Shown: in pieces, positions 276 through 11,062 of the stretch
Numbering within the stretch: the first letter of the stretch is position 1
Layout of the letters: the number at the start of each line of letters is the position of its first letter
IMG/VR virus record: IMGVR_UViG_3300007770_000008
DNA from: an uncultured virus (IMG/VR IMGVR_UViG_3300007770_000008)
Lineage: Duplodnaviria > Heunggongvirae > Uroviricota > Caudoviricetes
Length of the DNA stretch: 20,000 bases
Direction: 5' to 3' (one strand)
Notes under the pieces: generated by a model
Databases searched by the model: none
What the model saw: the letters and a program-made list of their open reading frames with translations, nothing else
What the model was told of the DNA's origin: nothing
Made by a program: the position numbers and the translations under genes

Positions 276-439
276 GCGAAACTCTCTCCTGACGGGTCTT
301 GGAACTCGCAGTAGATTGGTCTGGCGTCGACCTCTACATCACTGGGTGGGTCGATTGTTTCGCAGTGGATGACTAACGTATACCCATCCCCCACTAACCT
401 GCCACCGCAATTCGGACATGAGTCGAAGTTAGGCGTCAT
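272..439 (-). CDS. Hypothetical 55-aa Cys-rich (CPNC...HC...YC) protein
   Basis: Manual translation MTPNFDSCPNCGGRLVGDGYTLVIHCETIDPPSDVEVDARPIYCEFQDPSGESFA. ATGA-coupled at both ends and fills the gap exactly. Confidence 0.7.
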   Translation of the reverse strand: MTPNFDSCPNCGGRLVGDGYTLVIHCETIDPPSDVEVDARPIYCEFQDPSGESFA

Positions 440-1140
440 GCGAAACACTCTTCCGGGATCTCGACGACATCCTGACCCAGGCGGAAATCACGAGCTTTAA
501 GTTTGGTGATGATACGGTTACCCATACGGTCTTTGAGTTCCGTGCTAGGCCGCAACACCAAACCCTCAGCCCACTGGGTGCCTACAAACGATGTAAACCC
601 GGTTTGGGTATACTTTGCGGCCTCGAGCAAAGTACCTTTGCCCACGACGGGTACGAAGGGTAAACCCATTTCCCGTCCGTATTCTTCAACGTCTTCTCGA
701 GCGAAGAACACATCCAGCCCATTTTCGTCATTGACCGACATGATATCGAACAGGATAAATCGCTGCTCTCCGTCAGTCATGTAGTCGCCACCGCCTTTCA
801 TGATGCCCGAACCGTAGCCTTCGCCACACAGTACCAGGTTACCCTCGGGACCGAAGACGCTCTTAAGCATTTCGGGCGTGAAGGTCTTGGCCAGGTATTG
901 CACCAGCCTGCCAGGGATCTGTGCGTTGTCGGTGCGGCCACCGAAGATGACGTCATCGTTGTGTAGGGCCCCTCCCCAGAAGATACGGATGTTGGTACCG
1001 TCGATCTTCTCGGTCCAGGTCCATTCGTTGTTTCGTAGCAAGTGGAACTCGGGGCGGCTCCACTCGCCAAAGTTAAACGTCTTGTTGTTATTCACCGGGT
1101 CCCGATGAAACAGGCTCTGGATCTTGTGATACTTTTGCAT
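436..1140 (-). CDS. ATP-dependent RNA ligase, Rnl2-like nucleotidyltransferase domain
   Basis: N-terminal KYHKI, motif I EKIDGTN, motif III LCGEGYG, IIIa FILFDI, IV AEGLVLRP, V IITKLK. Confidence 0.88.
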   Translation of the reverse strand: MQKYHKIQSLFHRDPVNNNKTFNFGEWSRPEFHLLRNNEWTWTEKIDGTNIRIFWGGALHNDDVIFGGRTDNAQIPGRLVQYLAKTFTPEMLKSVFGPEGNLVLCGEGYGSGIMKGGGDYMTDGEQRFILFDIMSVNDENGLDVFFAREDVEEYGREMGLPFVPVVGKGTLLEAAKYTQTGFTSFVGTQWAEGLVLRPSTELKDRMGNRIITKLKARDFRLGQDVVEIPEECFA

Positions 1141-1143
1141 CGG

Positions 1144-1719
1144 TCACCTGAAAGTTGTTGAGAAGGTCAGTTCTGTCCTTTTGTCGTAATGGTCTCGTTT
1201 GAAACCTGCTGTCTCGATCGCCGCTAACGCCTCGTCGTACAAGGTGTCGCTGGCGTGACCAATTCGCTTGAGCAAATTGACCTTCTCGGCAACGAACAGG
1301 CTGGCGAATTGCTCCGGGGCTCCGCCCATGTCTTGTATATTGTCAATGACGTCGATCATCTTGATTCGCTTGGCCCAGTCGCTCACGCCCGCGAGACGCT
1401 GGTGATCGAGGTACTTCCGTACCGGGCGGCTTAGGTCCGGCACCCATTTGGACACGTTTGTCAGCTCGTCTACTAGCTGGATAGTTTCAAACGAGAATTT
1501 GAGATTGTGCAACGTGCGAAGACTATAGGCCCCGCAGTCCTCAACTACGTCATGGAGCCAAGCTGCCGCGATCTGGTCTTCAGTAACGTTCGTCTCAAGC
1601 GTCGTTCTTGCGGCAACCCTAGCCGGGTGTTCAATGAACGGGCGACCAGTCCACTTTCGTGTCTGGTCCTCATGGGCCACGTCTGCGAGTTGTGCCGCAA
1701 ATATAATGGTGTTTTGCAT
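1144..1719 (-). CDS. HD-domain hydrolase, RelA/SpoT (Mesh1/small alarmone hydrolase)-like
   Basis: HEDQTRKWTGRPFIEHP, AAAWLHDVVED, IKMIDVIDN. Start moved to ATG 1719, preceded by AAAGGA. Confidence 0.85.
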   Translation of the reverse strand: MQNTIIFAAQLADVAHEDQTRKWTGRPFIEHPARVAARTTLETNVTEDQIAAAWLHDVVEDCGAYSLRTLHNLKFSFETIQLVDELTNVSKWVPDLSRPVRKYLDHQRLAGVSDWAKRIKMIDVIDNIQDMGGAPEQFASLFVAEKVNLLKRIGHASDTLYDEALAAIETAGFKRDHYDKRTELTFSTTFR

Positions 1720-1736
1720 GGTGTCCTTTCGATCGT

Positions 1737-2375
1737 TTAAGCCTCGTAGGCCATAATTTGCTGAACAGCAATGATGGCACGATCGGTGCTGAACCAGCCC
1801 GAATCGTCCCGAAGCTTGCTCTCCATGTCTATCCACCAGTGATCGCCTTGCAGCAAATCTCCAATCCGGGGCAGCTCGGTGGCCAAGTTGTCAGGCCCCA
1901 GGCCTCCTGCAAACCCTACAGGCTTGACGGTGTCGGGCCTGCTCCAGGTTTCTGGCGTGATCCCTCGGCCACCAGAATTGTCGACGAGTATTGAGTGATT
2001 AGGTAGTTCCAAATCAATCAGGTCGTGATTGTTTTCGGTGGCTTGGGTGATGATCGTGTGATCCGTGTATATTTCACACAGATCTATCAGAAGCTTCTCG
2101 GAGACAGTACCGTTCACCTGTATTCTCTGAACAAGGTGAGTCAGCTCCGGTATTTCGTAGTTCTCTAGCTGCTGCCGGGCTTCCCGACCGCATACATGCA
2201 GAGCGGTTAGTCGGTGGCGTAGTTCCGAAAGTATTCGCCAGGCAGTCTTACGTGAAGGGTACCGTGTACGCCCTCGCGGCCTACAAGTGTATAGCACCGC
2301 TAGTTCGCAACTCTTAGGTAGCCACTGCACATCGGTGCGGGCATCTAGCCCGGTAAGGGTGATTTTGTGAAGCAT
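1737..2375 (-). CDS. Phosphoribosylanthranilate isomerase (TrpF)-like TIM-barrel protein, phage type
   Basis: ITLTGLD, RIQVN, LVDNSGGRG, GFAGGLGPDN, WIDMES motifs. Start moved to ATG 2375 (MLHKITLTG) just after the upstream stop. Confidence 0.7.
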   Translation of the reverse strand: MLHKITLTGLDARTDVQWLPKSCELAVLYTCRPRGRTRYPSRKTAWRILSELRHRLTALHVCGREARQQLENYEIPELTHLVQRIQVNGTVSEKLLIDLCEIYTDHTIITQATENNHDLIDLELPNHSILVDNSGGRGITPETWSRPDTVKPVGFAGGLGPDNLATELPRIGDLLQGDHWWIDMESKLRDDSGWFSTDRAIIAVQQIMAYEA

Positions 2376-2382
2376 CGTATAT

Positions 2383-3756
2383 CTAGTCCCCTGGGAAGAA
2401 CACTGGCTGGCCTTCGCTCTTGGCACTTGCGTCTTGTAGTCCGAAGGCCATTTCAAGGTCCTCCTTTGGTGGTTTCCTGTTTTCGACACGAACAGTGCAG
2501 CTCGGCGGCGTCGGGTTGTCCGGGCTTAAAATGGCTCGCAACAGCTTTGCCTGAATATCCGCCATGCTTTTGCCGCGTTCTACGTAGCCGAGCAGTTGCT
2601 GTGTTTCTTTTGGGTCAAGTTCGCGATCAAGCAATGCGGTAGCCATGTTAAGTGCTTGTTCGTTGGTGGCAGCAGGCAAGTGCACTTGAAGGTCCACGCG
2701 ACCCGGTCTGATCAGTGCCGGGTCTAGCTTTTCAGGGTGATTGCTAGTCATGATGACTAGCCTGCCTGCTGAGCGGGTAATCCCGTCCAAAGCATTGAGA
2801 ATACCCGACAACGTCAAGCCGTAACCCATTTCACCGTCAATAAGCGTAATAGACGTCTGCCTGTCTTCTTCGTCGTCACCCCGTCGACGTTGTGTAACGG
2901 CGGCACAGTCTATGTCTTCGATCAGCAGAACGCAGCGAGAAGGTATTCCTTCTACCAGCTTGGCGAATTTCGCGTCGTTCAACCCACTCGCCAGCGACAA
3001 CGTGTATACGTTCAACTCGAGGTGGCTAGCAATCGCGGCAACAGCAGTGGTCTTACCGCAGCCAGGTGGGCCAGCAAACAGGTAGCCTCTGCGGTGCGGT
3101 AAGCCATGTTGCTCATACCAGTCGCCGTCGGCAATGAATTTGTCAACGTCCTGTATAACGCGGTGCAACTGACCTTCCGGCCAGAAGACATTGTCTAAGC
3201 TACGTTGTTGCCCTTTACCGACGCTGTACCAGCCGCTGTCGAAACGGTATACCCAGTACCAGCCTCTAGACGGTGGGCCCCAAGACGCGTCTCTCGCGGT
3301 GGCGACGAAGTCGTATATGAATTCTTTTCCCCAACATAGGGTACTGAGCTGCACCGTTTCCTCGTATGCCTTGTTAGACCCGGCCTTGCTTTCAAGCTCA
3401 CGCCTGGTCCGGTCGAACCACAGCGGCCAACCTTTGAACCAGATTATGTGCCAACCTGGTGCCAGGCTTATTCGTAGATCCGGCCTCTCGCCGTAGTCTC
3501 CTGGGTTGACTGTTCTGAGTGACCAGAATCCTCGTACGTAGTGTTCAGTGTGTTCGTCTAGCCAGTCGAAAATCCAGCCAGTCGCAGGATCATTGTCCGT
3601 CAGCAACATCGTGGTCACTGTATAACGCTTGATCCAGTAGTAGATCTTGTGCGGTACGTTTCGTAGGTAGGCCAGGATTCCTGCTAGTATGCCTAGCATC
3701 AGCCCGCCGGTGAAGAACTGGTTGTCGGACGTTAGCAGGCTTGTGAGCCATTCCAT
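2383..3756 (-). CDS. BCS1-like membrane-anchored AAA+ ATPase
   Basis: N-terminal TM segment NQFFTGGLMLGILAG, Walker A GPPGCGKT, Walker B LLIEDID, LTLSGILNALDG, LIRPGRVD arginine finger. AGGAG SD. Ends in TAG. Confidence 0.88.
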   Translation of the reverse strand: MEWLTSLLTSDNQFFTGGLMLGILAGILAYLRNVPHKIYYWIKRYTVTTMLLTDNDPATGWIFDWLDEHTEHYVRGFWSLRTVNPGDYGERPDLRISLAPGWHIIWFKGWPLWFDRTRRELESKAGSNKAYEETVQLSTLCWGKEFIYDFVATARDASWGPPSRGWYWVYRFDSGWYSVGKGQQRSLDNVFWPEGQLHRVIQDVDKFIADGDWYEQHGLPHRRGYLFAGPPGCGKTTAVAAIASHLELNVYTLSLASGLNDAKFAKLVEGIPSRCVLLIEDIDCAAVTQRRRGDDEEDRQTSITLIDGEMGYGLTLSGILNALDGITRSAGRLVIMTSNHPEKLDPALIRPGRVDLQVHLPAATNEQALNMATALLDRELDPKETQQLLGYVERGKSMADIQAKLLRAILSPDNPTPPSCTVRVENRKPPKEDLEMAFGLQDASAKSEGQPVFFPGD

Positions 3757-3776
3757 TACATAGCTCCTAGGGTATG

Positions 3777-3805
3777 AAAAAAGCCCCGCCAGAACGGCGG
3801 GGCTT
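3777..3805 (-). terminator. Rho-independent terminator closing the ncRNA array
   Basis: Minus strand AAGCCCCGCC-GTTCT-GGCGGGGCTT followed by TTTT. Confidence 0.8.
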
Positions 3806-3808
3806 AGT

Positions 3809-3855
3809 TGGGGCAGGGGCTCGGTTTTTCACCGATAAAGCATGCACACCCCTAC
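3809..3855 (-). ncRNA. CCA-ended tRNA minihelix-like RNA (47 nt)
   Basis: GUAGGGGU/GCCCCUGC stem, T-arm-like UCGG-UGAAAAA-CCGA, encoded C-CCA 3' end. No anticodon arm. Confidence 0.4.
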
Positions 3856-3860
3856 ATAAG

Positions 3861-3982
3861 TTGCAGGCCTGGGAGTCGAACCCAGTCGGCCTCAGTTCAA
3901 ATGAGGATAACAGTCTTGCGATCAGCCCGTTGCCGGGCAAGTTAGTGCTGGACCGCGTTTAGCCTGTCACCAGACACCTGCA
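3861..3982 (-). ncRNA. tRNA-like RNA T1 with a 56-nt Y-module insert (3906-3961); anticodon loop UU-UGA-AC
   Basis: Acceptor UGCAGGU/GCCUGCA, short D hairpin GUC-UGGU-GAC, T arm CUGGG-UUCGACU-CCCAG, anticodon hairpin CUCA-UUUGAAC-UGAG. Confidence 0.75.
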
Positions 3983-3995
3983 ATTGATGATTGTA

Positions 3996-4024
3996 ATTGT
4001 ACCCTTACTACTTGTTTCTAGCAA
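3996..4024 (-). promoter_or_regulatory. Putative sigma70-type promoter upstream of T1
   Basis: TTGCTA (4024-4019), 17-nt spacer, TACAAT (4001-3996) in an AT-rich gap. Confidence 0.45.
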
Positions 4025-4242
4025 CCACCTGAGGGATCGACTAACTCTATAGTAGCGAAGATATGCGGCTCGTCCTCCGCACTGTACTGGTGTTTCAGGT
4101 CAGTATGGTAGAGCTGGGTTACACGGTAGCGGCCAGGGACGACCTCGACTTGCTCGTGATAATCGTCCACAAGTTCGTCATACAGTTCCGCCCCGCACGT
4201 GCCCAGGGTTACTGGGCAGAGGTAGGCCAGATGAAGCCCTAG
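4018..4242 (-). pseudogene. Start-less protein-coding fragment directly after the 3' end of T2
   Basis: Open frame LGLHLAYLCPVTLGTCGAELYDELVDDYHEQVEVVPGRYRVTQLYH...DPSGGC* looks protein-like. Its N-terminal extension in the ORF track runs through tRNA T2. Confidence 0.4.
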
Positions 4243-4244
4243 AG

Positions 4245-4370
4245 TGGTAGGGGCAGGATTCGAACCTGCACTAACTCGGTGTAAACGAGATAACAATCTA
4301 CCTGTCAGCCTGTTGCCGGGCAAGGTAGTGGTGGATCGTGTTGTTGTGCTAACCATTACACTACCCTACC
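4245..4370 (-). ncRNA. tRNA-like RNA T2 (Val, UAC) with a 54-nt Y-module insert (4289-4342)
   Basis: Acceptor GGUAGGG/CCCUACC-A, D arm GUGU-AAUGGUUA-GCAC, T arm GCAGG-UUCGAAU-CCUGC. Removing the insert gives ACUCG-UUUACAC-CGAGU and a 72-nt cloverleaf. Confidence 0.85.
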
Positions 4371-4376
4371 AAATTA

Positions 4377-4442
4377 CCGGGTAAGTGGACGTCGTGAAGG
4401 GCGGATCATTTACAGTGATAACCTTCATTGACTTCAACCCGG
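4377..4442 (-). ncRNA. Free Y-RNA-like unit A with anticodon-loop mimic CU-GUA-AA (Tyr)
   Basis: CCGGGU-UGAAG...GAAGGUUAUCA-CUGUAAA-UGAU...CCUUCA...CUU-ACCCGG. Confidence 0.75.
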
Positions 4443-4445
4443 AAG

Positions 4446-4572
4446 CTGCAGGCCCTGGAATCGAACCAGGTCTAGCCTCTTAGCAGGAGGATAACAATCT
4501 ACCTGTCAGCCCATTACTGGGCAAGTGTACGGTGGATCGGTTTTTGCTGTGCTACCATTACACTAGCCTGCA
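4446..4572 (-). ncRNA. tRNA-like RNA T3 (GCU anticodon) with a 56-nt Y-module insert (4490-4545)
   Basis: Acceptor UGCAGGC/GCCUGCA-G, D arm GUGU-AAUGGUA-GCAC, T arm CCUGG-UUCGAUU-CCAGG. Removing the insert gives GCCUC-CUGCUAA-GAGGC and a 71-nt cloverleaf. Confidence 0.85.
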
Positions 4573-4577
4573 AAATA

Positions 4578-4653
4578 TGCGGGTAAGGGTTTGGGGAAGG
4601 CGTTTCGTACATCTTCCAAAAAGTTGTGATAACCTTCTTCCAATCAACCCGCA
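4578..4653 (-). ncRNA. Free Y-RNA-like unit B
   Basis: UGCGGGU-UGA...GAAGGUUAUC-[ACAACUUUUUGGAAGAUGU hairpin]-ACGAAAC-GCCUUC...CUU-ACCCGCA. Confidence 0.7.
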
Positions 4654-4654
4654 A

Positions 4655-4725
4655 GTCGTAAAGCCGGGAGTCGAACCCAGTACCCGCACAAGCGGGCAAG
4701 CCAGCGTTTGCTACGCACTTCACAA
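4655..4725 (-). ncRNA. Anticodon-less tRNA-like RNA
   Basis: Acceptor UUGUGAAG/CUUUACGA, D-like GCGU-AGCAA-ACGC, central UGCCCGC-UUGU-GCGGGUA hairpin, T arm CUGGG-UUCGACU-CCCGG. Confidence 0.6.
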
Positions 4726-4730
4726 TAAAG

Positions 4731-4858
4731 AGCCAGAGCTGGGACTCGAACCCAGGACCTAAAGTTGGAGTTAACGATTAACCTTCAGCCCGTCGATCGG
4801 GCAAGCTAACGGAAAACCGTGTTTAAGACTTTTGCTCTACCAACTGAGCTACTCCGGC
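4731..4858 (-). ncRNA. tRNA-like RNA T4 with a 55-56 nt Y-module insert in the anticodon loop (about 4770-4825); anticodon ambiguous (UCC/UUC)
   Basis: Acceptor GCCGGAG/CUCUGGC-U, canonical D arm GCUC-AGUUGGUA-GAGC, anticodon stem AAAGU/ACUUU, variable AGGUC, T arm CUGGG-UUCGAGU-CCCAG. Confidence 0.8.
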
Positions 4859-4859
4859 T

Positions 4860-4924
4860 TGGTGCGATTGGTAGCCCTTTCAATGCTACTTTTAGGGCGT
4901 TGCCTCTCAGCACTCCGCAACCGC
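4860..4924 (-). ncRNA. CCA-ended short tRNA-like RNA (65 nt) without an anticodon arm
   Basis: GCGGUUG/CAAUCGC-ACCA acceptor, UGC-UGAGAG-GCA hairpin, GUAGC-AUUGAAAGG-GCUAC hairpin. Confidence 0.5.
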
Positions 4925-4931
4925 ATAAATA

Positions 4932-4993
4932 GCGAGCAAGTGGACGCGTTAGGGGTGATATCTTAAAAGGATAACCCTAGTGCTTCAGCTCGC
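4932..4993 (-). ncRNA. Free Y-RNA-like unit C with anticodon-loop mimic CU-UUU-AA (Lys)
   Basis: GCGAGC-UGAAG...UAGGG-UUAUC-CUUUUAA-GAUA...CCCUA...CUU-GCUCGC. Confidence 0.75.
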
Positions 4994-4998
4994 GTGTG

Positions 4999-5365
4999 TC
5001 ATCGTAGGAGGTCGATCCTCCCCTTTCCTAGTACTTGTTTGATTGTAGCGGATTTACCTGACCGGTGATCCTTTACCAGGCCCGACTTGAAGTCATAGGT
5101 TCGGACCGTCGTATTGTCATGGATCTTTGCGTCTCGGTCGGCTTTCTTCTCAGCAGCCCGTTTCTCCGCTTTGGCTTCGGCAAGTCTCTTGCTAAAGACG
5201 CCGTAACGCTTCCCGCTTGTTCTTGTGCTGGTCACGTCCGTCGATAGTGACGGAAATACCAGTAGGAATGTGGGTGGCTCGGACACAGGAATCGGTTTTA
5301 TTCTTGTGCTGTCCGCCTTTACCCTTTCCACGGAAGGTTTCGATCTTCACGTCTTTCTTGTTCAC
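4999..5365 (-). CDS. Truncated class I release factor homolog (GGQ peptidyl-tRNA hydrolase domain), about 121 aa via a predicted +1 frameshift at CTT-TAG-C
   Basis: AGGAG SD and GTG 5365. Frame 0 reads [39 protein letters not shown]...REALRRL-TAG (5192-5194). The +1 frame continues SKRLAEAK...[17 protein letters not shown]..., matching the RF1/RF2 C-terminal RTYNF...V.DHR motif. Confidence 0.85.
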
Positions 5366-5394
5366 GAGACTGCTCCTAAGTAATCATCAGCAAG

Positions 5395-5522
5395 GCAGGC
5401 CACTAGGAGTTGCACCTAGACTACCGGCTCCGAATGCGTTAACGATTTCCATTCAGCCCGTTTCCGGACAAGGGGCTGGAGACCGCGTTTTACGGCGTGC
5501 TATCTGTTACACTATGGCCTGC
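5395..5522 (-). ncRNA. tRNA-like RNA T5 (UCG anticodon) with a 55-nt Y-module insert (5438-5492)
   Basis: Acceptor (G)CAGGCCA/UGGCCUG(C), D arm GUGU-AACAGAUA-GCAC, T arm CUAGG-UGCAACU-CCUAG. Removing the insert gives CCGGC-AUUCGGA-GCCGG. Confidence 0.8.
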
Positions 5523-5529
5523 ATAAGTA

Positions 5530-5597
5530 ATGTGGGTAAGGTGATTGTTCGAAGGGGTTCTTCATTTGGGGTGATAACCTTCAACTTCAACCCACAT
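5530..5597 (-). ncRNA. Free Y-RNA-like unit D with anticodon-loop-like CC-CCA-AA (Trp)
   Basis: AUGUGGGU-UGAAG-UUGAAGG-UUAUCA-CCCCAAA-UGA-AGAAC-CCCUUCGA...CUU-ACCCACAU. Confidence 0.7.
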
Positions 5598-5634
5598 AAC
5601 TATCGTAGTAACGCCCCCTGGAGGCGTCAAGTGC

Positions 5635-6543
5635 TTAATTCGGATTGAGCGTAGCAAAGGCTTCTTCAACCAGAGCCCTTGCCTTGTCCGACGGCTCGTC
5701 CGGCGTTTCGTCTTCTCCGAAGTCGTCCCCTTCCAACTCTCGGATTCGGGCAATAGCCTCGTCCGACGTCTTCTGGAAAACTACTACGGAAATCAGCAGC
5801 TCTTTGAGGGCTGCCAGACTAAAGCCCTCTGTTTGGCTTGCCCAGGTAGCCAGGGTTTCCGCAGGCACGTCAAAACTGCTTTGACCGGCGACGAACTCCA
5901 AGTACTCTTGCCGTTGGGGCTTACCAGGCTGGCCTATCTCCAGCAAGGTGTCGATCCGGGAAGGTCGGCAACGAATTCGCTTCGGAACTTCGTCAAGGTT
6001 ATTGGTTGTTGCCAGGAAAAGGATCCCGTGGCCCATGCTCGTAGAGCCGTCCATGAGTTCCAGTAGTTCTTCCTCTTCGCCGTACTCACAGATACGCTCG
6101 ATGTCTTCGATTACACCTAGTACCGGACGTCCCGGCTCGATTTGACGAAGCAGTGGCATGCAGCTCCGGAAATGGTCCACCCCGGATATGAACGTGACAA
6201 CTCCCTTACGCTCGATCGTGTCCCGGATTACCAGTTGGACAATTCCGGTTTTGCCGCAACCAGGAGGCCCGTGGAGGAGTACACCACGTTTGTGGGTCAC
6301 GCCCAGGTTTTTGTAGTGCTCGCCTGTGCTCCAAAACCGCCGGATCTCCTCAACGATTTCATGAGCAGGTCCGTTACGGAATTCACACAACCGCTCATCT
6401 TTCTGCTGCTTGCGGTTTGCCAGCGGGTTGCCCCAGTTGTCTGTTTTGAAGTGGTACAGCCCAGAAGGCAACTGGTCAACAGTCTCGTGCGTGCCGGTGT
6501 AGACATCACGAGACGTGTTGTGGCTCCATTGCTTAAAACTCAT
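5635..6543 (-). CDS. AAA+ ATPase
   Basis: Walker A GPPGCGKT, Walker B GVIEDIE, sensor LATTNN, RPSRID. GAGG SD. Confidence 0.88.
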   Translation of the reverse strand: MSFKQWSHNTSRDVYTGTHETVDQLPSGLYHFKTDNWGNPLANRKQQKDERLCEFRNGPAHEIVEEIRRFWSTGEHYKNLGVTHKRGVLLHGPPGCGKTGIVQLVIRDTIERKGVVTFISGVDHFRSCMPLLRQIEPGRPVLGVIEDIERICEYGEEEELLELMDGSTSMGHGILFLATTNNLDEVPKRIRCRPSRIDTLLEIGQPGKPQRQEYLEFVAGQSSFDVPAETLATWASQTEGFSLAALKELLISVVVFQKTSDEAIARIRELEGDDFGEDETPDEPSDKARALVEEAFATLNPN

Positions 6544-8749: not shown

Positions 8750-8771
8750 AGTCAATAAGCGATAATTGAAA

Positions 8772-8846
8772 CGGCAGCGACGGGACTCGAACCCGTAACG
8801 ACAGAAATTTAGAATTTCCCGCTCTAGCCAATTGAGCTACGCCGCC
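8772..8846 (-). tRNA. Amber suppressor tRNA (anticodon CUA)
   Basis: Full cloverleaf: GGCGGCG/CGCUGCC-G, D arm GCUC-AAUUGGCUA-GAGC, anticodon arm GGAAA-UUCUAAA-UUUCU (CUA at 8812-8810), T arm ACGGG-UUCGAGU-CCCGU. CCA not encoded. Confidence 0.88.
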
Positions 8847-8851
8847 AAACC

Positions 8852-8939
8852 AAGGGGAGCCCGCTACGGATGTAGGACTCGAACCTACGTGGTTTCCTTG
8901 CAGGCCGTCTCGTTCCCTGCAGAACGAGGGGCTCCCCTT
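8852..8939 (-). ncRNA. Unknown structured RNA with a tRNA T arm and a potential pseudoknot
   Basis: 11-bp closing stem AAGGGGAGCCC/GGGCUCCCCUU, hairpin CUCGUUC-UGCAGG-GAACGAG, downstream CCUGCA, T arm GUAGG-UUCGAGU-CCUAC. Confidence 0.6.
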
Positions 8940-8941
8940 AG

Positions 8942-9015
8942 CGGCGGTTGTAGGAGTCGAACCTACCCGTGCCCGACACATAGGCCGGACCGCTCAACCG
9001 TCGAGCATAACCGCC
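8942..9015 (-). ncRNA. Atypical tRNA-like RNA (7-bp anticodon stem, 6-nt loop CUAUGU)
   Basis: GGCGGUU/AACCGCC acceptor, GCUC-GACGGUU-GAGC D arm, GUAGG-UUCGACU-CCUAC T arm. Confidence 0.7.
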
Positions 9016-9021
9016 GCGAAA

Positions 9022-9315
9022 CTAAACATCGGTGCCACTCTCACCTACTGATAGGTTCTTTAGAAATTTCGTCACCATCTCGCGATGCTTATCTGCGAAA
9101 TGCTCTACGGCGTCTTTGACTTTTTCTTGTCGGATCTCTTCTGCATGAAACCTCTCACACTGTTCTCTTGTAAAGAAACAGTGCTGAAGAGGGTTCCATT
9201 GGTCGTCTTCAAAAATGACCCTGTCACCCGTTACTTCGACGACTACGTCCGACTCGATCTGCTTGGTGCAGCTGCACATCCAGTAGGCTCTGAATGTGCC
9301 TTTTTTCTTTGCCAT
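9022..9315 (-). CDS. Hypothetical protein
   Basis: ORF track. Start ATG 9315 (MAKKKG) with GAGGT SD. Confidence 0.7.
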   Translation of the reverse strand: MAKKKGTFRAYWMCSCTKQIESDVVVEVTGDRVIFEDDQWNPLQHCFFTREQCERFHAEEIRQEKVKDAVEHFADKHREMVTKFLKNLSVGESGTDV

Positions 9316-9322
9316 GGGTACC

Positions 9323-9433
9323 TCAAAACGTGATTGTAACGTGGTGGGCACACCAGGCCATGAAGCCGAACAATATAAGGCCGACTATCAGACCGGCCCA
9401 AAAACATATGCCGTTTCCGTTGTCGTCACCCAT
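9323..9433 (-). CDS. 36-aa single-pass membrane protein
   Basis: Manual translation MGDDNGNGICFWAGLIVGLILFGFMAWCAHHVTITF with GGAG SD. Fills the intergenic gap. Confidence 0.6.
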   Translation of the reverse strand: MGDDNGNGICFWAGLIVGLILFGFMAWCAHHVTITF

Positions 9434-9456
9434 CGTTGTCTCCGTTTTCGGGCTAC

Positions 9457-9906
9457 TTAGGGAATTCTACCACCCGGCACGGTGATGACCATGTTAACAC
9501 CAGCGTACGGGAGGTCCGGCGGGTTGTCGTGCTTTTTGAAGACAAGGAGCAACTTGACTATAGCACTCGTGTGTAGCTCCCTGATCGTGAAGGTGTGTCC
9601 CTCCGGAAAGATAACAGCCCACCGCTCAGCGGTGCCATAGCGACGAACACTCCTGGTTTGTGCTGGTTTGTGCTTAACGACCTTGAAGCCGTGACATCGT
9701 AGCCAGTTGCGGGCCTTGACACTGTTTTCGATGTCTTCCGACCCGGTGAAGATGATCTCGACATTCTTGTCAACGACTTTCCAGTCGCGTGTCAGCGTGA
9801 TCTTGTCACCCAACATCGCAAACTGCTTTGTTGGCGGATCGTCACGTTGGTAAGCCAGTGGCAGACAGGTGGCGGCCACTACTGCGAGAGCGAAGATTTG
9901 CTTCAT
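9457..9906 (-). CDS. Hypothetical protein with an N-terminal signal-like segment
   Basis: MKQIFALAVVAATCLPLA. AAGGA SD. Confidence 0.65.
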   Translation of the reverse strand: MKQIFALAVVAATCLPLAYQRDDPPTKQFAMLGDKITLTRDWKVVDKNVEIIFTGSEDIENSVKARNWLRCHGFKVVKHKPAQTRSVRRYGTAERWAVIFPEGHTFTIRELHTSAIVKLLLVFKKHDNPPDLPYAGVNMVITVPGGRIP

Positions 9907-9938
9907 AACAATGGTCCTTGTAGGTAGGTGACTATTAG

Positions 9939-10035
9939 CGGGCGAGGGAGGATTCGAACCTCCAACCCGTTACCCAGGCGTTGCCGAATACAGAGCCTGT
10001 AATGGTACCGCTCTAACCAATTGAGGTACTCGCCC
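9939..10035 (-). ncRNA. tRNA-like RNA with an elongated anticodon arm (97 nt)
   Basis: GGGCGAG/CUCGCCC acceptor, D loop AAUUGGUUA, T arm GGAGG-UUCGAAU-CCUCC. The anticodon arm is replaced by GUACC-AUUA-CAGGC-(15 nt)-GCCUG-GGUAAC. Confidence 0.7.
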
Positions 10036-10037
10036 GT

Positions 10038-10115
10038 TACGCAGACCGACACACCCGAAGGCTCACGGTTAGACTTACGGAGCAATATTACTTGCCACAC
10101 CCGCTGGTCTGCGTA
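10038..10115 (-). ncRNA. Unknown structured RNA between tRNA-like genes
   Basis: 10-bp terminal stem UACGCAGACC/GGUCUGCGUA enclosing small hairpins, including CC-UUCG-GG. Strand inferred from context. Confidence 0.5.
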
Positions 10116-10116
10116 G

Positions 10117-10197
10117 TGGAGAGTGAAGGATTCGAACCTTCGACTGACGGCCTTCGTCTTATTGACGGGGCCCGCTCTACCGCTGAGCTAACTCTCC
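10117..10197 (-). ncRNA. tRNA-like RNA with a non-canonical anticodon arm (loop AAUAA)
   Basis: GGAGAGU/ACUCUCC-A, GCUC-AGCGGUA-GAGC, GAAGG-UUCGAAU-CCUUC. Arm GGCC-C-CGUC-AAUAA-GACG-AA-GGCC. Confidence 0.75.
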
Positions 10198-10201
10198 GAA
10201 G

Positions 10202-10287
10202 CGGGGAGTGAAGGATTCGAACCTTCGACCTTTCGTTGCACGAGGAGGCCTCTCGCAACGAACGCTCTACCACTGAGCTAACTCCCC
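10202..10287 (-). ncRNA. tRNA-like RNA with an 11-bp anticodon-less arm
   Basis: GGGGAGU/ACUCCCC-G, GCUC-AGUGGUA-GAGC, variable AGGUC, GAAGG-UUCGAAU-CCUUC. Arm UUCGUUG-CGAG-AGGCCUC-CUCG-UG-CAACGAA. Confidence 0.75.
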
Positions 10288-10321: not shown

Positions 10322-11062
10322 TTACTTCTTCTCGTCCGACCCCTTGTACTTATCAACCCCGGCGTCTGCCTGAGCTGCTCGATCCTCGTCATCGAACATC
10401 TCTAGACTGGCGGAGGTTACCTGGGCCGTGTAAGCCTCTTGACTCATACCCCGTGTTCTGGTCAGGCCTTTGCTCAAACCCTTGAACAGATCTGTGGTGC
10501 CTTGGCTGTTGTTAGCAGCGGTCAGAACGGCTTTGGCGTTACTAAAGCCCATAGCTTGTGCAACGTCCTCGGCGTCCTGGTTCATGCCGACGTAGGTAAA
10601 GGCCCAGGAGTATTTGCTTTCCTGTTCCTTGACCATCTCTTGCAGCCGTCGTTGAATGGATTGGGCGTTGCTGCCGTAAGGCGTGCCCCACTCAACATGT
10701 GCCGACGCGTTCTCGAGACCGTCGGTCAGCGTAACAAACACCACCTTATCTGGTCGATCGGCTTCTGGCATCTTGACCAGCCGGTCACCGGTATCTGTAA
10801 TCGCTCGGCACTGTGACGCCCATAGCGGGGTCATGCTTCGCGGATGCAGCATAAGTGACGGCACCTCTGCGATCGGTACGGCTCGGTAGACCACGTCAAA
10901 GCCGTTGCTGTCGAACTGGATGAGCGTTACAAAGCACTCGCCCGGTTCTTCGGCCTGCTCTTTAATCATGGCGTCAAAGCCACCGACTACGTCGGATTTG
11001 ATTGAGGACATCGACCCCGAGCGATCCAATAGGAAGGTCAGGTCGGTTCGGTTCTTCTTCAT
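10322..11062 (-). CDS. von Willebrand factor A (vWA) domain protein
   Basis: MIDAS FLLDRSGS, VTLIQFD, MTPLW, VTLTDGLENAS. Confidence 0.88.
   Translation of the reverse strand: MKKNRTDLTFLLDRSGSMSSIKSDVVGGFDAMIKEQAEEPGECFVTLIQFDSNGFDVVYRAVPIAEVPSLMLHPRSMTPLWASQCRAITDTGDRLVKMPEADRPDKVVFVTLTDGLENASAHVEWGTPYGSNAQSIQRRLQEMVKEQESKYSWAFTYVGMNQDAEDVAQAMGFSNAKAVLTAANNSQGTTDLFKGLSKGLTRTRGMSQEAYTAQVTSASLEMFDDEDRAAQADAGVDKYKGSDEKK

Follow-up and report, generated by a model that had tools for sequence, protein, structure and literature searches.

In vertebrates, the site that Ro60 occupies on a Y RNA has been described as a helix in which a single C bulges out, with a further bulge in the facing strand, and the loop domain of these RNAs as variable; the same account lists the nematode CeN72 as a stem-bulge RNA, a class held to be homologous to the Y RNAs (PMC4726728). 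In bacteria, Y RNAs mimic tRNA and lie within 4 kb of rsr, the gene for the bacterial Ro60 (Rsr), on the same strand, and it is by this proximity that Chen et al. (2014) assigned them (PMC4201824). As they describe YrlA, found in Salmonella Typhimurium, Mycobacterium smegmatis and mycobacteriophages, its handle takes the place of the anticodon stem on a tRNA-shaped body; this handle is made from the RNA's own 5′ and 3′ ends, the acceptor stem is sealed, and the described form has no anticodon loop. In some jumbo phages, Ro60 and a tRNA-like partner have further been portrayed as a platform for RNA repair (PMC7824862). Here, we describe an array of small RNA genes in a 20,000-nucleotide stretch of DNA, the window, from an uncultured virus of the Caudoviricetes (IMG/VR record IMGVR_UViG_3300007770_000008). 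Its units are either free or embedded in tRNA-like genes, and from their sequences we regard the free units as probable minimal Y RNAs and the embedded units as probable tRNA/Y RNA chimeras, with a predicted role as partners of Ro60.

The array runs from 5596 to 3861, with all its features on the minus strand of the window, and consists of four free units (A to D) and five tRNA-like genes (t1 to t5), each of the latter carrying an insertion of about 55 nt. A free unit precedes a tRNA-like gene, either directly or about 70 nt away, in four cases (D/t5, C/t4, B/t3 and A/t2), so that nine handles are packed into 1.8 kb. Common to all nine units is one module, which reads, in the order of the free units: a lower helix GGGY/RCCC, followed by a single bulged U and by two pairs, G-U and A-U, where GA faces UU; beyond an asymmetric internal loop come an upper helix of 5-9 bp and the conserved junction UUAUC. 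In the free units the lower helix is outermost, as it was in 12 of 12 folds (with predicted RNA ends), and within the upper helix lie UUAUC, a small variable hairpin and an AAC linker. In the embedded units the order is AAAC, the 5′ strand of the upper helix, a linker, CUU and the lower helix, followed by UGA, a linker, the 3′ strand of the upper helix, UUAUC and the anticodon arm; here, the lower helix is closed by GCAA, GUAA, GAAA or a longer loop (4-12 nt in all), and the ends of the RNA lie in the acceptor stem. The inserted module and the free unit are thus circular permutations of each other.

The pairing of this module is seen in the sequences of its relatives as well as in folds. Across 43 distinct embedded modules, 88.3% of the cells are paired, against 75.1% in shuffles, none of the 500 of which reaches the observed value; changes on both sides occur in 11 of 17 pairs, slid controls attaining 50% at most, and helix 2 is paired in 92.8%. 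The lower stem of the free units, taken from 18 matches to a model built from other loci (14 free units and four matches that read across units), is 96.5% paired, with compensatory changes in 5 of 8 pairs. The pairs that follow the bulge are nearly invariant, the G-U being kept in 16 and the A-U in 17 of these 18 matches, and in the module alignments a single A stands opposite 4-6 nt on the other strand. A lower-stem helix, a single bulged pyrimidine and an opposite-strand bulge are thus all present, as at the vertebrate site. Judged from these alignments, the conserved and covarying part of each unit is not its loop: it is the bulged helix, a putative handle of the Ro60/Rsr type.

These units are not chance resemblances, since models built from other DNA find them. 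The model of seven free units from other loci (R1) matches unit C with an E value of 1.4e-14, unit A with 5.5e-9 and unit D with 2.4e-6, and the model of 34 embedded modules from other loci (R2) finds exactly the five embedded modules of the window (E 3.2e-10 to 8.2e-8), the next match standing at 0.54. A scan of genomes returned at least 121 matching loci, and arrays among the matches listed belong to Desulfonema magnum, Candidatus Parabeggiatoa, Candidatus Thiomargarita nelsonii and metagenome-assembled genomes of delta-proteobacteria; in the four genomes checked, one array per genome holds almost all of the matches. A scan of metagenomes with the embedded-module pattern gave 105 loci, 11 of which hold module-bearing tRNA genes. 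Most rows of both pattern scans are chance matches inside coding DNA, and rows were kept only where a tRNA T arm or a closing strand accompanied them. Like the window, the arrays of relatives hold both free and embedded forms. Amongst viruses, GenBank phages returned no match to positions 3700-5700 (blastn) or to the 920-aa protein of the window (tblastn). Pattern scans of IMG/VR yielded 15 loci for the free unit, all chance-like and without a closing strand, none for the first embedded pattern, and three chance matches for a wider one, and the neighbouring AAA ATPase used as a query for related loci found no relative.

It is the company kept by the relatives that names the probable protein partner. 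Directly downstream of the D. magnum array lies a gene for a protein with TROVE and vWA_Ro60 domains, that is, a Ro60/Rsr protein, and tblastn with this protein places rsr directly downstream, on the same strand, in six relatives' loci (L019, L037, L039, L168, L192 and L218), with a C-terminal remnant of rsr downstream in a seventh (L139). Altogether, rsr or its remnant follows 7 of the 9 arrays whose flank can be assessed, the flank of the remaining arrays being too short. Two of three IMG/VR phage loci fetched through rsr (L249 and L250) also have free and embedded units beside it. In two loci of Desulfobacterales type (L246:9159-11074 and L245:6264-6827), an HNH endonuclease gene comes after the array and the rsr gene or remnant; in L246, rsr is reduced to its last 106 residues. 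The Parabeggiatoa array has, about 2.3 kb upstream, an operon (L247:12348-16881) of the type found in cyclic oligonucleotide-based antiphage signalling systems (CBASS), with a DncV-like cyclase, E1/E2-like proteins, a JAB protein and a SAVED effector.

Likeness to the described Y families is found in the relatives too. RF01656, the Rfam family of nematode CeN72-type stem-bulge RNAs, is matched by seven free-unit matches, three at or above its gathering score of 38 (43.7, 39.8 and 38.6) and four below, and one relative unit aligns end to end with Y_RNA (RF00019; 21.3 bits, E 0.016, gathering score 38). The Rfam consensus lines share with our units a GG-N-C run, the bulge and a 5′ strand with GA, followed by GGGUUAU, UUCCCA and ACUUG. 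In common with the metazoan Y RNAs and stem-bulge RNAs of these two families, the units have one bulged pyrimidine in the lower stem, with GA/UU after it; an asymmetric loop leads to an upper stem and GGGUUAUC, the 3′ strand holds ACUUG, and the loop domain varies. They differ in that the bulge here is mostly U rather than C (it is C in the phage loci L249 and L250), in that our free units measure 63-76 nt rather than about 100, and in lacking an oligo-U tail. The bacterial model YrlA (RF02553) is matched at 46.8 bits (E 9.1e-8 in 21.8 kb), and its path is instructive: in the locus L037, it takes from a first tRNA/Y gene the 3′ half of the module, the T arm, an acceptor strand and the spacer, and from the next gene in tandem an acceptor strand, the D arm and the 5′ half-module. 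As the YrlA model reads across two tandem genes in this way, the embedded form would be YrlA turned inside out.

The comparison with YrlA can be taken further. Both join a handle to a tRNA-shaped body at the anticodon-stem place, both are encoded beside rsr on the same strand (in our case, in the relatives), and both have a YUAY/UUAUC junction after the handle. Whereas YrlA is described with a sealed acceptor stem and an open handle, the units here have open acceptor ends, with CCA encoded in some relatives, and a GNRA-type loop seals their handle. A 7-nt anticodon loop is retained in most copies, and both handle strands are conserved, against only the 5′ strand in YrlA. With the module on the 5′ strand of the anticodon arm and a tRNA body with open acceptor ends, the embedded unit corresponds to a circular permutation of YrlA. 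The pairing of a small RNA with a tRNA-like one is itself familiar, as the Rsr partners Yrn1 of Deinococcus radiodurans and YrlB of Salmonella are likewise small RNAs encoded beside a tRNA-like one. Yrn1 keeps both handle strands, and a hairpin like an anticodon arm (5 bp, 6-nt loop) can be drawn in it (PMC4201824). Our free units are much smaller than Yrn1 or YrlB and have only one distal hairpin; for Yrn1, tethering of polynucleotide phosphorylase (PNPase) has been shown.

Several points weigh against the reading of these units as Y RNAs. No window unit matches an Rfam Y family, even at an E value of 10, tRNA being the only family matched, and the link from the window to the Y families therefore runs through the relatives; there, all Y_RNA and YrlA scores lie below gathering (46.8 against 69 for YrlA). 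Unit B matches R1 weakly (E 0.74), and both alignments from which pairing was counted were fitted to the models, which favours structure. Characterised Y RNAs, according to a preprint, all build the handle from their 5′ and 3′ ends (bioRxiv 10.1101/312249), and the embedded handle is closed by a loop. Finally, 2 of the 9 assessable arrays of relatives have no rsr within 800-1500 nt downstream, and neither rsr nor a TROVE domain is found in the 20 kb of the window (best E 1.5 in tblastn with D. magnum Rsr; Pfam over 23 open reading frames). Reading TAG as a sense codon, a variant prompted by a CUA suppressor tRNA, merged no reading frames into a gene of Ro60 size.

Nine handles in 1.8 kb, and no rsr within 20 kb, could also be what one expects of a trap: an array that soaks up the Ro60/Rsr of the host and so disables an Rsr-dependent pathway of RNA surveillance or decay by which the phage is harmed. 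That Y RNAs can gate Ro60 against other RNAs, as the same preprint reports (bioRxiv 10.1101/312249), would suit such an array. Yet only 20 kb of the phage are visible, rsr may lie elsewhere, and the related phage contigs carry rsr together with units of this kind; we find it quite improbable that trapping is the purpose. That the units work with a Ro60, whichever genome encodes it, remains our favoured reading.

How, then, is the handle built into the tRNA-like genes? In t5 (5394-5522; R2 E 8.2e-8), the module (5438-5503) sits between anticodon-stem positions 29 and 30, a GAAA loop closes the handle, and the anticodon loop is AUUCGGA (UCG). The module of t4 (4731-4858; R2 E 9.4e-10) lies in the anticodon loop itself (4770-4835), between AAAGU and ACUUU strands. 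In t3 (4446-4572; R2 E 3.2e-10), of which ARAGORN detects only the 3′ part, it occupies 4490-4556 between positions 27 and 28, with GUAA closing the handle and the loop CUGCUAA (GCU); t2 (4245-4370; R2 E 2.4e-8) has it at the same place (4289-4355), with GCAA and the loop UUUACAC (UAC). Last, t1 (3861-3982; R2 E 2.7e-9) has a reduced D arm, the module at 3906-3972 before the anticodon arm, and the loop UUUGAAC (UGA). The full Rfam tRNA model recognises the cloverleaf of t4 (58.5 bits, with a 56-nt insertion) and t2 (47.8 bits, with a 67-nt insertion), those of t1, t3 and t5 being drawn by eye only. As each gene pairs its own acceptor strands, which are unlike those of the other genes, the tRNA-type delimitation is the correct one here. 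In the preliminary description of this DNA, made from the sequence alone, no clearly read anticodon was said to repeat, and this holds for the four embedded ones that can be read; that of t4 is ambiguous, UCC being possible.

Such variety of place is what small introns or mobile insertions might show, if they were removed to yield working tRNAs and the free units were excised or permuted copies. In relatives, the module is found in the D loop (L168:1501-1566), between 27 and 28 or 29 and 30, and in the anticodon loop, and non-canonical introns of archaeal tRNAs also have varied insertion points. The module of t4, moreover, interrupts the anticodon loop and should block decoding, and an RNA ligase is encoded nearby. 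Against removal, no bulge-helix-bulge, group I or hammerhead core can be drawn and no Rfam intron is matched, and the two strands of the junction leave the upper helix from one and the same end. By eye, the module could be read neither as a hammerhead or kink-turn nor as box C/D or bulge-helix-bulge. In several relatives, the whole anticodon arm is replaced by the module (L039:3120-3185 and L047:3127-3192), so that its removal would leave no decoder. Since introns would, in addition, leave both the likeness to the Y families and the linkage to rsr unexplained, we regard them as highly improbable.

The free units show the handle by itself, with whatever it displays. Unit D (5531-5596) has the terminal stem UGUGGGU/ACCCACA, a bulged U, GA/UU and the upper stem GAAGG/CCUUC, with a weak distal hairpin that holds CCCCAAA. 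Unit C (4931-4994) ends in a hairpin UAUC/GAUA with the loop CUUUUAA, and unit A (4376-4443) in AUCA/UGAU with CUGUAAA. Unit B (4578-4653), with the handle GCGGGU/ACCCGC and GAAGG/CCUUC recognised by eye and in folds, has a longer and irregular distal domain. The preliminary description had singled out three of these loops as mimics of the anticodon loops of tRNA-Tyr (GUA), tRNA-Lys (UUU) and tRNA-Trp (CCA), and they do lie where it placed them (plus-strand positions 4409-4415, 4963-4969 and 5565-5571, reading CUGUAAA, CUUUUAA and CCCCAAA on the minus strand). Minimum-free-energy folds return the 4-bp stems and 7-nt loops of units A and C, and give unit B a distal hairpin with a 3-nt loop, in line with the irregularity ascribed to it. 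The 3-bp UCA/UGA stem proposed for unit D is absent from its best fold, where the loop measures 12 nt, and the residue at position 33 would be C instead of U. More broadly, the description was right that these are structured RNAs that do not decode, often with a hairpin like an anticodon arm.

Is this likeness to anticodon loops real, and is it what matters? Sixteen distinct free units were compared: four from the window, three from L019, two each from L249 and L250, and one each from L039, L047, L133, L102 and L218. The best folds give a distal loop of 7 nt to seven of them, and five of those loops read CU-NNN-AA, each with a different triplet (GUA, UUU, GCU, GAA and UGU). Set against a background of 0.4% for CTNNNAA amongst the 7-mers of the window (80 of 19,994, minus strand), 5 of 16 indicates that the likeness is real and points to descent from anticodon arms. 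The expectation that homologues would keep loop size together with U33 and a purine at 37 failed: 11 of the 16 lack the pattern, and the orthologous first units of L039, L047, L133 and L218 have loops of 5, 9, 19 and 7 nt. The idea of a diversified panel thus finds partial support: anticodon-like loops far exceed chance, the loops are unconserved, and the handle is the conserved part. By analogy, such loops behave like the variable loop domain of a Y RNA, and not like a conserved recognition panel. Pairing between the triplet of a free unit and the anticodon of the tRNA that follows was seen for A (GUA) with t2 (UAC) only, not for B/t3, C/t4 or D/t5, and is put down to chance.

If the loops were nonetheless the working part, the free units would be stand-alone anticodon-loop mimics that titrate or sense host anticodon nucleases (such as PrrC, AriB of PARIS and PtuAB of Ec78), with no part for Ro60. 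The excess of CU-NNN-AA loops, every triplet different, and the RNA ligase, HD enzyme and GGQ factor encoded nearby speak for this. The substrates of the SOS-induced anticodon nuclease of Salmonella include the elongator tRNAs Trp CCA, Tyr GUA, Cys GCA and Phe GAA, and YrlA has been proposed as a possible competitive inhibitor of that enzyme (Hughes et al. 2020, PMC7790460). Three of our six anticodon-like triplets, counting the five CU-NNN-AA loops and the weak CCA of unit D, fall in this set (GUA, CCA and GAA), an overlap that we treat as a post hoc coincidence (naive P 0.004). Yet the loops are the least conserved part of the units, unit B has none of this kind, and the hairpin of unit D is missing from its best fold; the handle is conserved and accounts for the linkage to rsr, and a bare decoy would need no handle. 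The nearest phage precedents are also of another kind. The tRNA-Lys of phage T5 counters PARIS and its tRNA-Tyr counters Ec78; both are complete tRNAs able to decode, and they take the place of the cleaved host tRNA or outlast it. Our units share with them a phage genome, the anticodon loops of nuclease-targeted tRNAs and a place in a tRNA cluster; unlike them, the free units have no acceptor stem, nor a D or T arm, and thus are not complete tRNAs of the replacement or decoy type, and the embedded units carry a 55-nt handle in the anticodon arm. We therefore think it unlikely that mimicry without Ro60 explains the array, and return to the Y RNA reading.

What might a Y RNA array do here? Its surroundings in the window, where 10 of 20 proteins match PHROG families, suggest a setting of tRNA damage and repair, with many odd tRNAs. 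Downstream on the same strand lie genes for a BCS1-like AAA ATPase, an HD-domain phosphohydrolase (1144-1836, minus strand; Pfam HD_4 E 5.3e-9, PHROG phosphohydrolase) and an RNA ligase (436-1140, minus strand; Pfam RNA_ligase E 1.4e-17, PHROG RNA ligase), and the array itself encloses a gene with an RF-1/GGQ domain (5062-5365, minus strand; Pfam), which stands outside the RNA family. This last gene is in two frames joined at CUU UAG C, the first of which matches RF-1 positions 8-65 (E 1e-19) and the second, at +1, positions 65-116 (E 0.0062), and the letters at the joint are the same in contigs of four DNA runs, which may be the window's own source. Apart from its UAG, the joint resembles the site of +1 frameshifting in prfB.

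We infer from this setting that a Ro60/Rsr ring, from the host or encoded outside the window, would bind the handle, whilst the distal anticodon-arm hairpin or the tRNA body would serve as the second module of the Y RNA. That module might either tether Ro60 to factors directed at tRNA or gate it against them while tRNA is under attack, and the array RNAs would work in concert with the RNA ligase, HD phosphohydrolase and GGQ rescue factor encoded nearby. A bolder version, which we advance tentatively and hold to be rather unlikely, would make the units sentinel anticodon arms tethered to Ro60. The ribonucleoprotein would display loops that nucleases target, and would either soak up the nuclease or be cut, releasing Ro60 to pass damaged tRNA to the ligase; the array would be a counter-defence panel of the phage, and the open-ended chimeras could be CCA-tailed or even charged, in which case they would be the first Y RNAs that are also tRNAs. 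The suggestion in the preliminary description that cleavage might release a bound protein would fit an RNA bound by Ro60.

A few further features of the locus deserve mention. Just upstream of free unit D there is a promoter-like site (TTGACG, 17 nt, TACGAT; 5602-5630, minus strand), a consensus match only; such sites are no more numerous in the region than in shuffles. Just past t1, a strong terminator-like hairpin of 11 pairs followed by a T run (3781-3805, minus strand) is likely, from its sequence, to be the end of the array transcript. Between t4 and unit B, a decayed sixth module can be read by eye (4660-4725, minus strand): AAAC-G-CUGG-CUU and a GCCCGC/GCGGGU hairpin are followed directly by a T arm. 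This remnant is the 5′ half of a handle, without the UGA side or the upper stem and with no acceptor strand or D arm in front, and it falls partly in a read-across match of R1 (4691-4794, E 7.9e-4). The DNA of the window comes from marine metagenomes, and no RNA run is listed amongst the sequencing runs that contain it. Contigs of the four DNA runs are identical to the window over 3780-5660, and the sole joints in them are with ordinary tRNAs of other organisms that match the arms of t4. In these other organisms of the same marine samples, the short D-arm and T-arm sides of t4 are matched (20 nt each) with an ordinary anticodon arm between them, whose loop, on the minus strand, has UGU, CUU or UUU; such matches suggest that t4 came from a tRNA body of the Thr or Lys type.

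A second cluster of odd tRNA-like genes lies at 8771-10287 (minus strand), none with a Y handle by R1 or R2. It includes the CUA (amber suppressor) tRNA at 8771-8847, a hairpin bearing a T arm near 8860-8935, and three tRNAs of 81-97 nt whose anticodon arms are lengthened or interrupted (10202-10287, 10117-10197 and 9939-10035). Just upstream of it, a 246-aa protein with weak vWA matches (10322-11062, minus strand; PHROG 7371, E 4e-43) has a homologue, 36% identical, about 1.5 kb behind the rsr and Y RNA/tRNA array of an IMG/VR phage (L250:7117-7602). Considered as a relative of Ro60, this protein showed no relation (BLASTP E 0.32), and no PDB relative of it was found.

The effector-binding module of Y RNAs is poorly understood, and YrlA, the known tRNA-like form in bacteria, has neither a free acceptor end nor an anticodon loop. 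The novelty of this locus lies in a Ro60-type handle set on tRNA bodies that are complete, open at their ends and equipped with real anticodon loops, next to a free form that is a handle with an anticodon-arm hairpin. A full-text literature search, whose coverage left out most subscription journals, turned up no account of tRNA genes with a Ro60 handle embedded in them. Few YrlA RNAs were reported from delta-proteobacteria and cyanobacteria by Chen et al. (PMC4201824), and the relatives supply candidate Y RNAs for delta-proteobacteria and for the Beggiatoaceae, the large sulfur bacteria. The layout of the units supports an origin of the Y RNA effector module from tRNA, and the array would offer a compact system for asking whether Ro60 ribonucleoproteins deal with damage to anticodon loops when phages and bacteria are in conflict.

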